Below are positions 3,253-50,217 of a DNA stretch of 58,241 nucleotides, piece by piece. How positions within the stretch are numbered: position 1 is the stretch's first letter; each line of letters opens with the position of its first letter. Source of the DNA: Patescibacteria group bacterium (GTDB taxonomy: Bacteria > Patescibacteriota > Minisyncoccia > Phycocordibacterales > UBA9973); assembly GCA_028865035.1 (NCBI GenBank), contig JAGWLB010000005.1:1-58241 (forward strand), in the 5' to 3' direction. The position numbers were made by a program, and so were the translations under genes. The notes under the pieces were generated by a model. The model ran no database searches. It was not told where the DNA came from and was given only the letters and a program-made list of their open reading frames with translations.

Positions 3253-5481
3253 TTATTCGAAGTGAAGATCTAAATTTTTACCCAATAAAGCTTTTGCAAG
3301 TATAGGAAGCGAAGATATATTTTTATCATTTTCTATTATTTTTGTAGCTTCATATCGTGCTGCTTCCACCATTTTAATATTCTTTATTGCTTCCATTCCT
3401 AAATCAGTAATACCCCACTGCTTTTCACCACCTAGTAATCCTGCTCCACGAAGAGATAAATCTAATTCTGCTAATTCAAAACCATTATTTGCTTTAACTA
3501 AAGCTTTTAATCTATCTATCGTTTTATCTGTTTTTGCGTCAGCGAATAAGTAACAGTAAGATTGATAGGTACTACGCATAACTCGTCCTCTAAGTTGGTG
3601 AAGCTGAGCAAGACCAAAACGTTCAGCCCCCTCTATTATTATAGATGTGGCATTTGGTATATTAACTCCAACTTCAATAACAGAAGTAGATACCAGTATG
3701 TCTAACTTATGATCTTTGAATTCTTTCATAACCTCTTCCTTTTTCTGTTTTGACATCTTGCTATGCATAATACCTATACGATACTGTGGAAATACATCAC
3801 GGGCAAGACGTTTTGATTCAGATATTACTGATTTAACCATTATAGCTTGTTCTTTAAACCCTAGTTCACCTGCCTGCGCAGGCAGGTCTATGCGTGGACA
3901 AATAACATACACCTGTCTTCCTTCTGATAATTCTTTTTTAATAGCTTCATAAGCCTTAATTCTTTTATCTGGTGATACGATTTCAGTAATTATTTTTTTA
4001 CGACCGAGAGGCATTTCATCTATAATGGTTAGATCTAAGTCCCCGTAGATAGTTAATGCCAGTGTTCTTGGGATTGGAGTAGCTGTCATTGAAAGATAAT
4101 GTGGAGCATGACCTTCCTTTTTTACTAATTTCATACGCTGATTTGTTCCGAAGCGATGTTGTTCATCTATGATAACTAAACCCAAATCTTGAAATAAAAC
4201 ATTTTTTGAAATAAGAGCGTGTGTACCTATAACTATTGGAATCTCCCCATTCTTAATCCATTTTAGGAGTTGATTTTTAGATATTGGAGTCCAAGTCTTC
4301 TCTTGCACCCCATTTATCCAGCGGGCACTTTTACTAGGAAACTTTCTACAACCTGAGCCAGTAATCAATGCTATTGATATACCTGTATGTTGAAAGTAAT
4401 TAATAAAATTCTCAAATAACTGAGTAGCTAATACTTCAGTAGGAGCCATATACGCAACTTGTAAATTACCAAAGGTTTGTTGTTTTCCCAAATCGGAGTT
4501 AAATGGTCTGTTTTTTATAACAGCGTATGCGACTGTTGCAGCAACAAAAGTCTTACCACTACCAACATCTCCTTCAATAAGTCGAGACATTGGCTTGTCT
4601 TTTTTGAAATCATCTAAAATTGTTTTTATTGCAGTCGTTTGAGATTTTGTTGGAGTAAAAGGAAACCTCGAAATGAAATCATTAATATCCTTTTGTGGAA
4701 TACTGAGCTTGTAAGAGAATAATTCTTCGTAACTTTTACGTTCCTGTTGTCGAGTTAGTTGAATAAAAAATATTTCTTCAAATGCAAATCTTTTACGAGC
4801 TATATCTGCATGAGACTTCTTTTGTGGCATATGTATCCAAATAAAGGACGTGTATAAAGAAGGTAATTTGTATTTATCGATTATGTTTTGTGGTAAATAG
4901 TCGACTATTCTTTTAGTGTTGTCATTTTTTAAAATTTTTTGAATTGCATGATAAATCCATAAAGACGTAATACCTTTTGATTCTCCGTAAACAGGGTAAC
5001 CAAAACAATTTGCTACATCAGATGATGCTTTAGCGCTTTTAAAAAGTGAATTATGTATATCTATCGGTAAAACTTCTTCAGAACTAATCTGTGGATTTGT
5101 TAATGTTAGACCATATGTTTTATTCTCGGACACCTTGCCGGTTACTTTAACCACAGACCCCTCTTTTAACATTTTTGCTAAATATGGTTGATGGAACCAA
5201 ATAATATTTATCGAACCCGTTAAGTCAGTAAGCACGGCTTGCCCCATAGATATCTTACTTTTGAAGCTTTTTTTTGTTTTTAATTTTGAAATATTACCGA
5301 GAACAGTAATATTATCACCTGACTTTAATGTATCGATAGAACGTATTTCTGAAATATCGGTATACCTTGATGGAAAATAATAAAGTAAATCGTGTATAGT
5401 ATGCAAACCCAGACGGTCTAGCGCCTTTCTCTGAATATTATTAATTCTAAAATGCTTATCTATCTTATCTTCCTGTTGCAT
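3253..5481 (-). CDS. recG: ATP-dependent DNA helicase RecG
   Basis: Wedge/OB N-terminus, Walker A GDVGSGKT, DEQHRFG, TATPIPRT and QLHQLRGRV motifs. Confidence 0.9.
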   Translation of the reverse strand: MQQEDKIDKHFRINNIQRKALDRLGLHTIHDLLYYFPSRYTDISEIRSIDTLKSGDNITVLGNISKLKTKKSFKSKISMGQAVLTDLTGSINIIWFHQPYLAKMLKEGSVVKVTGKVSENKTYGLTLTNPQISSEEVLPIDIHNSLFKSAKASSDVANCFGYPVYGESKGITSLWIYHAIQKILKNDNTKRIVDYLPQNIIDKYKLPSLYTSFIWIHMPQKKSHADIARKRFAFEEIFFIQLTRQQERKSYEELFSYKLSIPQKDINDFISRFPFTPTKSQTTAIKTILDDFKKDKPMSRLIEGDVGSGKTFVAATVAYAVIKNRPFNSDLGKQQTFGNLQVAYMAPTEVLATQLFENFINYFQHTGISIALITGSGCRKFPSKSARWINGVQEKTWTPISKNQLLKWIKNGEIPIVIGTHALISKNVLFQDLGLVIIDEQHRFGTNQRMKLVKKEGHAPHYLSMTATPIPRTLALTIYGDLDLTIIDEMPLGRKKIITEIVSPDKRIKAYEAIKKELSEGRQVYVICPRIDLPAQAGELGFKEQAIMVKSVISESKRLARDVFPQYRIGIMHSKMSKQKKEEVMKEFKDHKLDILVSTSVIEVGVNIPNATSIIIEGAERFGLAQLHQLRGRVMRSTYQSYCYLFADAKTDKTIDRLKALVKANNGFELAELDLSLRGAGLLGGEKQWGITDLGMEAIKNIKMVEAARYEATKIIENDKNISSLPILAKALLGKNLDLHFE
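3869..3886. repeat. 18-bp G+C-rich perfect palindrome CCTGCCTGCGCAGGCAGG, in-frame inside recG (encodes LPAQAG)
   Basis: A 20-nt identical string CCTGCCTGCGCAGGCAGGTC recurs at 36139-36158. Confidence 0.8.
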
Positions 5482-10667: not shown

Positions 10668-10754
10668 ATTTATTTTATATGCTAAATGTTTTATAAAATT
10701 CTATAAACCTATTTTAACATCAATATTTGAGTATCGCAAAAATATACATAACTG

Positions 10755-10841
10755 CGGAGCCGGCTGGATTCGAACCAGCGAGGGCTTTTAGACCCTGCAT
10801 CTTTAGCAAAGATGTACGTTAGACCACTCTGACACGGCTCC
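10755..10841 (-). tRNA. tRNA-Ser(GCT), type II with long variable arm
   Basis: Acceptor GGAGCCG/CGGCTCC, anticodon arm CATCT-TTGCTAA-AGATG, T-arm GCTGG-TTCGAAT-CCAGC, discriminator G. Confidence 0.85.
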
Positions 10842-10938: not shown

Positions 10939-11025
10939 GGAGGCGTGGATGAGTGGTTTAAATCAACGGTTTACTAAACCGTCGTACTTTAATCGGTACC
11001 GTGAGTTCGAATCTCACCGCCTCCG
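10939..11025 (+). tRNA. type II tRNA with Ser identity features and an apparent ACT anticodon
   Basis: GGAGGCG-TG-GAT-GAGTGGTTTAA-ATC-A-ACGGT-TTACTAA-ACCGT-(variable arm)-GTGAG-TTCGAAT-CTCAC-CGCCTCC-G. Confidence 0.7.
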
Positions 11026-11124
11026 CAGTAAGAAAAAAGTATCGGCACACCCATCGTCATATGGCTGTAGTGTGATCCGAATGCCCGATTACCCAAAAGA
11101 CTTGTTTTAAGCTAAAATTAGAGC

Positions 11125-35926: not shown

Positions 35927-35974
35927 ATATTCGACACAGCTGACATATCTTTTGGCATGTCACTTGCCGACTTG

Positions 35975-36045
35975 TTGCGGGGCCTGGAATCGAACCAGGG
36001 TCTCAAGGTTATGAGCCTTACGAGATACCATTTCTCCACCCCGCT
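35975..36045 (-). tRNA. tRNA(CAT) with initiator-like features
   Basis: AGCGGGG-TG-GAGA-AATGGTA-TCTC-G-TAAGG-CTCATAA-CCTTG-AGAC-CCTGG-TTCGATT-CCAGG-CCCCGCA-A. It has a 1:72 A/A mismatch and A11:T24, but only two G:C pairs at the base of the anticodon stem. Confidence 0.7.
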
Positions 36046-36083
36046 ATAATACTACAAACTATCTAATATTGATATCATTTTTA

Positions 36084-36194
36084 TAGGCTCATAACCTTGG
36101 TTATTCGCACTATCAGTCCTTATCGGAGATACCATTTCCCTGCCTGCGCAGGCAGGTCCACCTCGCTATAATACTACAAACTATCTAATATTGA
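36084..36194 (-). pseudogene. rearranged pseudo-copy of the 5' part of tRNA(CAT) plus its upstream region, carrying the 18-bp palindrome
   Basis: 36126-36194 equals 36022-36072 plus the 18-bp insert, with 1 mismatch. 36084-36100 is an inverted copy of the anticodon arm. Confidence 0.6.
36139..36156. repeat. second copy of palindrome CCTGCCTGCGCAGGCAGG
   Basis: Identical to 3869-3886. Confidence 0.8.
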
Positions 36195-36642: not shown

Positions 36643-36738
36643 TATTTGTAAAGACTACAACAAATCCGAAAAATATGTTGTAGCCTTTTATTTTTACCTT
36701 TTGCAAAATAATCAAATTTAAACTAGTATATTTCATAT

Positions 36739-36764
36739 GCCGTTGTAGCTGTCTTGGTAGGTAT
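36739..36764 (+). pseudogene. 5' fragment of tRNA-Thr (acceptor + D-arm remnant)
   Basis: GCCGTTGTAGCTGTCTTGGTAGGTAT compared with the intact GCCGTTGTAGCTCAGTTGGTAGAGCA at 36806. Confidence 0.45.
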
Positions 36765-36805: not shown

Positions 36806-36878
36806 GCCGTTGTAGCTCAGTTGGTAGAGCACTCCATTGGTAATGGGGAGGTCAGCAGTTCAATCCTGCTCAACGGCT
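36806..36878 (+). tRNA. tRNA-Thr(GGT)
   Basis: GCCGTTG...CTCCA-TTGGTAA-TGGGG...AGCAG-TTCAATC-CTGCT-CAACGGC-T. Confidence 0.9.
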
Positions 36879-49125: not shown

Positions 49126-50217
49126 ATGACTTTCCTCGAACCAGCTAGTAAATTCTATTCTCGCTTTGAGCGACCGATATCATCGTTGTCATTACTTTCG
49201 GGTTTCATATTTGATGCACTTACACTCAAACGAGTAGATACACTCTGGGAGAATTTCTGGATATTGATACATCTTCTCATTATTTGCGTGTTTATAATCT
49301 TAATTCACGCGAATGAAAGTGGAGAAGGAGATGAAAAAAACCCGTCCAAGGCACACTTCTGGTATGTGAATATATTACAATTCTTTTTTGGTGGCATCCT
49401 TTCTGCGTTTTTGGTTTTTTATTTCCGTAGTGCTGACATCTTGGTGACTTGGCCGTTCATCTTGCTTCTTATTGCAGCTTTTGTGGCCAATGAGTCACTC
49501 AAGCGTCATTATGTAAGATTAAGTTTTCAGATTAGTCTCTTTTTCCTCTCAGTTTATTCTTTTGCTATATTTTTTATCCCGGTTATATTACACCAAATAG
49601 GTACATATATATTTCTGCTATCTGGTTTGGTAAGTCTTGTTTTTATCAGTATCTTTGTGAGCGTGCTGTTCTACTTTCTAAAAGATCGCTTTACAGAGAG
49701 TAAAAGATTAGTTGTCTTTCTTGTGCTTGGTATCTTTGCTACAGTGAACATACTTTATTTCACAAATCTTATTCCGCCTATTCCACTATCACTCAAAAGT
49801 GGGGGAATATATCATTCTGTACAAAAGAATGATACTGGAAACTACGATGTCACTTCTGAACCACGGAGTTGGCGTGACTATCTTAATATTTATCAAGACT
49901 TCACTCAGACGCCAACAGATCCAGTGTATGCATTCAGTGCTGTGTTCTCACCTAGAGATTTAAATATTACTATTGTTCACGAGTGGCAACATTACGATGA
50001 AGTAAAGAAGAAGTGGCTGACTAATGCTACTATACGTCTACCGGTGGTAGGCGGGCGCGATGGAGGCTTCCGTACGTATTCTATGCTTACCAATCTCACT
50101 CCTGGTAAGTGGCGGGTGAATATAAAGACTACAGAAAATAAAGTTATCGGACGCTTACGGTTTCGTATTGTTGATTCTAACACCCTGCCTGCTCTTGTGG
50201 ATGAGATAGTGAAATAG
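49126..50217 (+). CDS. polytopic membrane protein with C-terminal DUF2914-like beta domain
   Basis: About 7 TM segments, then WQHYDE...GGFRTYS...GKWRVNI. TATACT lies 6 nt upstream of the ATG. Confidence 0.6.
   Translation: MTFLEPASKFYSRFERPISSLSLLSGFIFDALTLKRVDTLWENFWILIHLLIICVFIILIHANESGEGDEKNPSKAHFWYVNILQFFFGGILSAFLVFYFRSADILVTWPFILLLIAAFVANESLKRHYVRLSFQISLFFLSVYSFAIFFIPVILHQIGTYIFLLSGLVSLVFISIFVSVLFYFLKDRFTESKRLVVFLVLGIFATVNILYFTNLIPPIPLSLKSGGIYHSVQKNDTGNYDVTSEPRSWRDYLNIYQDFTQTPTDPVYAFSAVFSPRDLNITIVHEWQHYDEVKKKWLTNATIRLPVVGGRDGGFRTYSMLTNLTPGKWRVNIKTTENKVIGRLRFRIVDSNTLPALVDEIVK

Follow-up and report, generated by a model that had tools for sequence, protein, structure and literature searches.

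A palindromic insertion at two sites of a Patescibacteria contig

Contig JAGWLB010000005.1 of a Patescibacteria group bacterium (assembly GCA_028865035.1), analyzed here over 58,241 nucleotides and referred to as the window, carries two exact copies of the 18-bp palindrome CCTGCCTGCGCAGGCAGG, for which we use the name PAL18. The first copy (3869-3886, no strand) lies within recG, whose product has 742 residues (3253-5481, minus strand), and the second (36139-36156, no strand) lies in an orphan 5' fragment of a tRNA-Met gene. Together with its flanks the recG copy forms a perfect 20-bp palindrome at 3868-3887, and the 20-mer CCTGCCTGCGCAGGCAGGTC is common to both sites, as an initial annotation made from the sequence alone had described. 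No further copy was found in the window at up to three mismatches, 100 dinucleotide shuffles of the window gave no match, and the two copies are its only G+C-rich palindromes of at least 12 bp against a background of about 33% G+C. As a DNA hairpin the 20-mer has a folding energy of -7.9 kcal/mol (z -3.6), and all six frames of PAL18 are free of stop codons. A contig from an independent public run spans 3556-3899 with zero differences from the window; the recG copy is thus not an assembly artefact. No known RNA family was found at either PAL18 site.

The recG open reading frame (ORF) encodes the RecG_wedge, DEAD, Helicase_C and RecG_dom3_C domains, and its homologues place the window among Paceibacteria/Nomurabacteria-like members of the candidate phyla radiation (CPR). 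PAL18 splits an Asp codon between its second and third positions and is translated as LPAQAG (…CPRID-LPAQAG-ELGFKEQ…). The initial annotation had proposed that taking out the 18 bp (D-LPAQAG-E) leaves the frame intact and that the insert opens the second helicase lobe; both points were borne out, the insert mapping to a length-variable loop after the first beta-strand of that lobe, between residues 589 and 591 of Thermotoga maritima RecG (1gm5), where the loop has two or three residues. The gene probably still looks intact because PAL18 contains no stop codon and because LPAQAG, placed in a surface loop, would be the most tolerated reading.

LPAQAG is present in three of the 120 closest RecG orthologues, always at one position, and absent from the other 117. 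The three PAL-bearing genes are 71-73% identical in nucleotide sequence, yet the 20-mer ACCTGCCTGCGCAGGCAGGT is identical throughout and uses the same codons. They do not group as a clade, since for two of them the closest relatives (94% and 88% amino acid identity) lack PAL18. The claim of a clean insertion into recG holds for the reading frame but not for the adjoining bases, since the nearest PAL-less alleles read CPRI[DN]-EPDPD-KEQ and all three PAL-bearing alleles read CPRID-LPAQAG-E[PL]GF-KEQ, a difference of LPAQAG plus E[PL]GF against EPDPD. The 13 adjacent bases, TGAACCTGGATTC, accompany PAL18 in 3/3 PAL-bearing alleles versus 0/117 others. As these bases travel with the palindrome, the recG copy and its nearest PAL-less relatives differ by more than a clean 18 bp. 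The pattern fits short-patch transfer between alleles, as in homing with co-conversion; alternatively the recG palindrome may be actively maintained, and the two are not separable here. A search for a longer co-conversion tract gave nothing convincing outside the 13 downstream bases. As a separate observation, two loci encoding an identical RecG protein (P0002; L126 1-7100 and L125 1-7000) differ in the region upstream of recG, where one carries type IV pilus genes and the other a terminase, a DNA methylase, a LexA-like repressor and a Thoeris pair (ThsB_TIR, ThsA_Macro), pointing to the insertion of a prophage or defence island.

The second copy provides the direct comparison of filled and empty DNA within the window. 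Its host is a duplicate (36126-36194, minus strand) of the upstream region and first 23 nucleotides of tRNA-Met(cat), lying 100 bp from the intact gene, which together with its upstream region occupies 35974-36073 on the minus strand (tRNA at 35974-36045). The duplicate comprises an upstream-region copy (36167-36194) and tRNA positions 1-23 (36126-36166), split by PAL18 in the D-arm part after ARAGORN position 10; the uninterrupted paralogue has the empty site between 36034 and 36035 (catttc|tccacc). Alignment of the two gives exactly 18 extra bases and no target duplication, and so upholds the proposal that the paralogue proves insertion. It had also been stated that the element lands in both coding and RNA-gene DNA. 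Both kinds of target do occur, but the RNA copy sits in an orphan fragment that is not recognized as a tRNA and is not functional, rather than in a working tRNA gene. The base on the left side of this copy is C, a non-purine. In the source runs, which are mine-drainage metagenomes covered by contigs at a depth of about 3-6, the sole apparent joint that could bear on presence/absence polymorphism (36041>36164) is an alignment ambiguity across a 31-nt direct repeat.

Dispersal, targets and reading frame of PAL18

A scan for the exact 18-mer across reference genomes, one per species, returned at least 120 loci, and the motif is thus far from confined to the two sites in the window. Among the matches listed, 71 of 120 are labelled CPR (Patescibacteria, the group of the window) and span many classes, 16 are Bacteroidota-like, and the rest include WOR-3, metagenome-assembled genomes (MAGs) labelled 'Gammaproteobacteria' and a few G+C-rich genomes. 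About nine matches would be expected by chance at uniform composition, and about 1e-7 copies per Mb at 33% GC; for the G+C-rich genomes chance is a plausible source. The 940 kb of fetched loci contain 127 exact copies, five copies with one mismatch and none with two or three, in a locus set whose origin in an exact-match scan biases it toward perfect copies.

Empty and filled sites could be paired for tRNA-Met, tRNA-Gln and UvrB (KPITE|VKG vs KPITD-LPAQAG-VKG), and the absence of target duplication noted initially extends to these pairs. When the flanks of all copies were symmetrised, the sole bias was a pyrimidine at +1 (79%), with neither a conserved tag nor a duplication. PAL18 thus sits at a purine|pyrimidine (R|Y) step, and the empty sites assign those two bases to the target.

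Genes are the main location of the element, with 79 of 127 copies lying within open frames of at least 150 aa. For copies in ORFs of at least 200 aa at A+T-rich loci (n=41), the translation is LPAQAG in 31, PACAGR in 8 and CLRRQ in 2. The excess of LPAQAG is significant (p=4e-8) against equal frames and also against the R|Y steps available in each codon phase. We rejected the preference for R|Y steps as its source, since this would predict a split of 14/10/17 in place of the 31/8/2 observed; the bias must therefore come from selection or descent. The sampled hosts are broad housekeeping genes, including DNA enzymes (TopA, PolA, RecJ, AddA-like, GyrB, DnaG), translation functions (TrmD and five aminoacyl-tRNA synthetases), and cell wall and other functions (FtsW, Mur ligases, SOD).

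These data bear on whether PAL18 is an element at all, as opposed to an ancestral part of the recG coding sequence, a palindrome that arose by chance, or an artefact of adaptors or assembly. Some matches in G+C-rich genomes and most of those in viral contigs (GC 0.58-0.67) do fall within chance expectation, but we give this explanation practically no credence. The insert is missing from 117/120 RecG orthologues, the paralogous empty site proves insertion, chance could hardly produce copies at 33% GC, and a frame bias of this size is impossible for an artefact. PAL18 is carried by independent assemblies and runs, and an artefact or adaptor origin is ruled out by these together with the frame bias, the taxon bias and the empty/filled pairs. 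Phages were likewise rejected as a reservoir: the 25 viral contigs with PAL18 are mostly G+C-rich, holding chance matches or longer hairpins, and about three are A+T-rich.

The setting of the window's second copy recurs elsewhere. When the view is extended beyond the window, seven PAL18 copies lie in orphan tRNA 5' fragments, each adjoining an intact tRNA. Five are tRNA-Gln fragments with PAL18 between positions 10 and 11, and one derives from another tRNA; the D-arm insertions in tRNA fragments (Gln, Met and one other) are at L027 1735-2105, L110 389-745, L038 6792-7173, L037 3540-4013, L042 372-487 and L120 538-673, beside 36126-36194 in the window. Such fragments hold about 6% of PAL18 copies, a very large enrichment for a rare sequence. 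Between the fragment and the intact tRNA-Gln lies a free-standing small GIY-YIG gene at three loci and an HNH gene at one. The acceptor bases of the fragment differ from those of the resident tRNA, and the fragment may therefore travel with the endonuclease gene.

Further repeats and tRNA features were observed alongside. In Bacteroidota MAGs (L004/L043, L012/L102, L105/L112, L033/L083), PAL18 lies inside longer multi-copy intergenic repeats; because flanks are common to the copies within one genome, the longer units have the look of composite repeats of which PAL18 is one part. A second G+C-rich palindrome, TCCGCCAGCTGGCGGA, occurs 40-200 bp from PAL18 at five A+T-rich loci of different genomes (L066 2079, L097 7450, L105 4962, L112 5470, L107 5737) and may be another miniature family of the same kind. 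Within the window, a second orphan tRNA 5' fragment (atgccgttgtagct…, 36737-36760) lies about 70 bp upstream of tRNA-Thr(ggt) (36806-36830) and lacks a palindrome; within this tRNA cluster, partial duplication of tRNAs seems to be frequent. ARAGORN also reports divergent tRNA-Ser genes at 10754-10841 (minus strand) and 10939-11026 (plus strand), with anticodons gct and act, of which only 10939-11025 reaches the Rfam gathering score.

In-frame GIY-YIG cassettes with PAL18 termini

The two halves of PAL18 also delimit a family of much larger inserts. These are GIY-YIG cassettes with the termini CCTGCCTGC … GCAGGCAGG, two 9-mers that, when joined, give PAL18 exactly. Six loci (L070, L127, L129, L130, L131 and L192) were used to read the cassette ends. 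Cassettes start with CCTGCCTGCgccgcg, finish with cgcgGCAGGCAGG, and measure 279-303 bp, 282 bp (94 codons) being the commonest length. Neither a start nor a stop codon belongs to the cassette itself, and the GIY-YIG domain is read through in the frame of the host gene (D|LPAPRP…RQAG|G). In one WOR-3 MAG (L070), a single hsdR gene carries three inserts with the same ends in the same frame: PAL18 itself, translated LPAQAG; a 39-bp hairpin, CCTGCCTGC…GCAGGCAGG, translated LPAPQSEAARQAG; and a 291-bp insert with a GIY-YIG domain, translated LPAPRPGQYCIYVL…NLSAARQAG. The 39-mer hairpin has a folding energy of -17.7 kcal/mol. A protein search with the 291-bp insert returned unrelated hosts, namely HsdM, HsdR, O6-methylguanine methyltransferase, Fic, DUF899 and a DUF1156 methylase, each holding an internal D|LPAPRP…RQAG| module.

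When metagenomes were scanned for the cassette ends, at least 120 loci were returned. Among the matches listed, cassette length is divisible by three in 116/120, and the LPAPRP…RQA(G) GIY-YIG frame is open and continuous with the host ORF on both sides in 110/120; the open cassettes are in the LPA frame in 110 of 111 cases and in the PACAGR frame in one. The base to the left of the junction is a purine in 94% and that to the right a pyrimidine in 89%, mostly as GA|YG. Around 40 of 113 cassette loci hold further short hairpins with the same ends, or solitary half-sites. Across all loci these mini-hairpins number 47, are mostly 30, 33, 36 or 39 bp long (43/47 divisible by three), and have inner stems resembling the inner repeats of the cassette.

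An exhaustive profile search matched 174 cluster representatives at E<=1e-30 and 4051 at E<=1e-10; the top matches are mostly long proteins in which the match falls mid-protein. The LPAP…RQAG span is found in 81 of 143 new top matches (mode 94 aa) and is internal in 64 of those 81. For 64 distinct 282-bp cassettes, median amino acid identity is 62%, the catalytic motifs are conserved, and conservation by codon position is 0.77/0.81/0.44, which together indicate a nuclease under purifying selection and hence a live gene. Judging from its sequence, the full-length product would be a single-domain GIY-YIG nuclease of the UPF0213/Slx1-like type; it belongs to Pfam PF01541, its closest solved structures are the UPF0213 proteins 1zg2 and 1ywl, and its similarity to Slx1 is weak. 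The free-standing GIY-YIG gene next to the tRNA-Gln fragments is homologous to it (hhalign probability 96%).

Twenty host ORFs drawn at random yielded 19 that could be identified, all DNA enzymes (six HsdM, four HsdR, four SNF2-type helicases, two HsdS, two DNA methylases and one UvrD/PD-(D/E)XK protein), and one without a recognizable domain. One cassette interrupts uvrB of a Paceibacterota MAG (L192); 96%-identical orthologues have a clean empty site (…gtgaaaaa|tgg…), which shows this insertion to be recent, precise and free of duplication. PAL18 is found in 2/120 UvrB orthologues, in one at KPITE|VKG and in the other (P0228) 3 bp from the cassette site of P0156.

Other arrangements were seen in cassette loci. 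A cassette and a 39-mer abut head to tail in L129 1130-1180 (…GCAGGCAGG|CCTGCCTGC…), and in L070 7070-7087 a stray right half is followed by a cassette, as if the ends of elements were preferred insertion points. Two cassette hosts, L176:3-2012 (minus strand) and L244:3-2573 (plus strand), have additional in-frame nuclease-type domains: an HsdR host has a DUF559 (Vsr-like) domain between PPKEG repeats, and a NOV_C protein has an IS200-like Y1_Tnp domain. In-frame nuclease cassettes may thus be a broader phenomenon in restriction and helicase genes. In the window, a solitary left half-site, CCTGCCTGC, is present at 50184-50192 (plus strand), near the 3' end of the ORF 49126-50217 and translated ..TLPAL..; it could be a remnant or have arisen by chance, and whether it belongs to the family is uncertain. 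The idea that PAL18 forms the ends of a longer transposon in the window was discarded, as this single stray half-site has no partner.

PAL18, the mini-hairpins and the cassettes have in common their termini, codon phase (2|3), R|Y junction, lack of target duplication and multiple-of-three length; the mini-hairpins bridge the other two forms, and full cassettes occur within the bacterial group of the window. Our preferred reading, which we regard as probable, is that PAL18 belongs, as the smallest and cargo-less member, to a family of hairpin-ended, in-frame elements whose full-length members encode a GIY-YIG nuclease. The likeness to Rickettsia palindromic elements (RPEs) drawn in the initial annotation survives as an analogy; the actual relatives are the in-frame cassettes with the same 9-bp termini.

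The same relationship could be read in reverse, with PAL18 as an immobile footprint that marks a former in-frame cassette cut out to leave 9 bp of each end. Ends and codon phase identical to those of cassettes would follow from this, as would the UvrB copy in P0228 so close to a cassette site, and the near-exclusive LPA frame of open cassettes would account for the excess of LPAQAG. Excision does not sit well with the PACAGR frame, found in 8/41 genic copies of PAL18 versus 1/111 cassettes, or with the roughly 40% of copies outside long ORFs or in tRNA fragments. Nor would it lead one to expect PAL18 in broad housekeeping genes, unlike the hosts of cassettes, or its complete absence from 113 cassette-bearing metagenome loci, where the small forms are 30-39 bp. 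We consider a footprint unlikely on this evidence.

Comparison with known systems and a possible mechanism

If PAL18 is a cargo-less family member, internal deletion of a cassette would yield hairpins of 30-66 bp that keep the 9-bp ends, and PAL18 would be formed by loss of everything between the two 9-mers, which GC microhomology flanks. The family nuclease, supplied in trans, may bind the GC-rich stem of the termini in single-stranded DNA and cut at its base, with a copy then fixed at new R|Y sites or passed between alleles by short-patch conversion. Genic copies would survive only where six extra residues do no harm.

The closest parallel to such an enzyme is SsnA, a GIY-YIG nuclease made up of a single domain of 94 aa, which binds NTS hairpins solely in single-stranded DNA and cuts a few bases away (PMC11893778). 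Its gene is often flanked by NTS repeats, an arrangement its authors liken to an insertion sequence (Chenal et al. 2025, PMC11893778). Both systems tie a single-domain nuclease of about 94 aa to short, GC-rich, multi-copy hairpins. The Ssn nucleases belong to CDD family cd10448, whose size of about 94 aa the 94-codon cassette product matches. The cassette nuclease differs in that it is read through inside a host protein without a start or stop of its own, and in that a single hairpin, split into its halves, encloses it in place of two complete repeats. Ssn repeats are oriented and mostly intergenic, with 2% of NTS genic, and Ssn genes are free-standing (PMC11893778), whereas PAL18 is symmetric, has no oriented GTCWY flank and is mostly inside genes. 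As a side observation, intergenic PAL18 copies occur amid GTCATTCC…GGAATC-type hairpins at L076 7830-7960, L072 5930-5965 and L113 2430-2465; these resemble NTS/SRM repeats (e.g. gtcattcccgccaaagcgggaatc in L076), and in L076 PAL18 appears to lie midway within one such unit.

One cassette-like insert has been described before. The HsdR protein MCA0838 of Methylococcus capsulatus contains a Slx1-like GIY-YIG insert that is absent from an 80%-identical homologue, and this was judged a recent insertion, a possible molecular parasite and a unique case (Dunin-Horkawicz et al. 2006, PMC1564403). Compared by its published description, the insert probably belongs to the cassette family; that account does not describe termini, a family, miniature derivatives or CPR copies.

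Among elements that enter reading frames, PAL18 resembles RPEs in its in-frame insertion, in the tolerance of its peptide on the protein surface and in having no obvious transposase within the repeat. RPEs are palindromic, about 100-150 bp long and confined to Rickettsia, where they are inserted in frame and the extra peptide is tolerated on the protein surface; no coding parent is known for them. PAL18 is 18 bp long, spans several phyla (CPR and others) and has a coding parent with the same ends. Like miniature inverted-repeat transposable elements (MITEs), the small members are non-autonomous, keep only the termini of a coding parent and outnumber it. Unlike MITEs, they leave the target site unduplicated in every empty/filled pair, their parent encodes a GIY-YIG nuclease rather than a DDE transposase, and lengths are multiples of three in copies read in frame.

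Inteins and homing elements offer a further likeness, being selfish in-frame nucleases of conserved genes, often those of DNA enzymes, with a patchy presence among orthologues and co-inheritance of neighboring bases as seen at recG. Inteins have Cys, Ser or Thr at positions 1 and +1 and His-Asn at the C-terminus. Cassettes have the consensus LPAPrPg…GraRQAG, after which variable host residues come; neither a nucleophile nor an HN splice motif is present, and the insert therefore presumably stays in the protein. Cassettes also use many insertion sites and not one homing site. Repetitive extragenic palindromic sequences (REPs), with their mosaic elements (BIMEs) and RAYT proteins, match PAL18 in their short GC-rich hairpins, lack of target duplication and chemistry on single-strand hairpins; RAYT, unlike a GIY-YIG nuclease, is an HUH/Y1 transposase that both cuts and joins. 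PAL18 copies are mostly in open frames and their flanks have no conserved tag, while REPs are described as extragenic and oriented by a GTAG or CGTC tag (PMC3733652).

A different explanation for the perfection of the copies is that PAL18 is a maintained functional hairpin, selected, for instance, as a recognition site for an Ssn-like single-strand nuclease modulating natural transformation or recombination, or as a landing pad for cassettes, and not a decaying remnant. CPR genomes carry pilus and competence genes, which would suit such a role, and NTS hairpins with SsnA modulate transformation in Neisseria (PMC11893778). In the three recG alleles, about 72% identical, no PAL18 position varies and none of nine upstream third-codon positions is conserved, and the scarcity of imperfect copies among the fetched loci points the same way. 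That scarcity could equally arise from recent spread and loss, and from the bias of an exact-only scan. A DNA uptake sequence occurs about once per kb, in one lineage, and arises by substitution; PAL18 occurs at a low density of two per 58 kb, is the same in several phyla, unlike lineage-specific uptake or control signals, and arises by insertion. Its copies also interrupt essential genes and are absent from most orthologues (present in 3/120 RecG and 2/120 UvrB). A maintained functional role is on balance improbable.

Several observations weigh against PAL18 as the cargo-less member of the cassette family. The lack of PAL18 in the cassette-bearing loci, already noted, is one, and the three size classes occur together in L070 only. 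The dynamics of the two forms may differ, given the broad housekeeping hosts of PAL18 and the restriction-modification and helicase hosts of cassettes. No GIY-YIG gene was found within the 58-kb window, so that a trans-acting enzyme in this organism is assumed. GIY-YIG nucleases cut and do not ligate, and a joining activity was not identified. The symmetry of PAL18 is a further difficulty for an Ssn-like mode of recognition: the oriented SRM motif HGTCWYN(0-2)YYVSBRHN(0-5)WNVSBRGN(0-2)RNCYNB matched 0/127 PAL18 sites with their flanks, its one match in the window, at 35958, being due to chance. The association with tRNA fragments is unexplained by the proposed model. Among the three recG alleles, four of the 13 adjacent bases vary and none of the 18 PAL18 positions does (p about 0.001), an invariance at a shared site that a simple selfish-and-decaying model does not predict.

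A more tentative view, possible but which we would not yet back, sees in the cassettes a mobile element of a new class, a 'domain parasite'. A cassette of this kind would lack promoter, start and stop, would be expressed solely as a domain within its host protein and would spawn in-frame miniatures. It would borrow the DNA binding of its host, which would account for the leaning toward restriction subunits, helicases and repair enzymes; the borrowing itself is speculation from the preference for DNA-binding hosts. Miniatures down to 18 bp would have colonized housekeeping genes and tRNA-gene fragments across the CPR, and repeated recognition, cutting and recopying by the nuclease would keep them perfect. 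Recopying of this kind would explain why the recG copies are invariant and also why they have spread patchily, in the manner of homing, together with 13 co-converted bases.

The cassette family is apparently widespread and undescribed, and the mechanism of its miniatures is only partly established. In the literature searched, the termini, the family, the in-frame miniatures and the spread in CPR were not described beyond the one HsdR case of 2006; most subscription journals lay outside this coverage, and a prior description is possible. If the proposed relationship is true, it explains small in-frame indels (LPAQAG, LPA…AQAG) in essential genes of CPR and other bacteria, which affect alignments, phylogenies and gene calls. 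Hairpin-specific GIY-YIG single-strand nucleases would thereby be tied to a true mobile-element life cycle that runs inside reading frames, where until now chiefly inteins and RPEs were known. Matched pairs of enzyme and hairpin would then be directly testable in vitro, and gene flow between uncultured lineages could be traced with PAL18 as a simple sequence marker.

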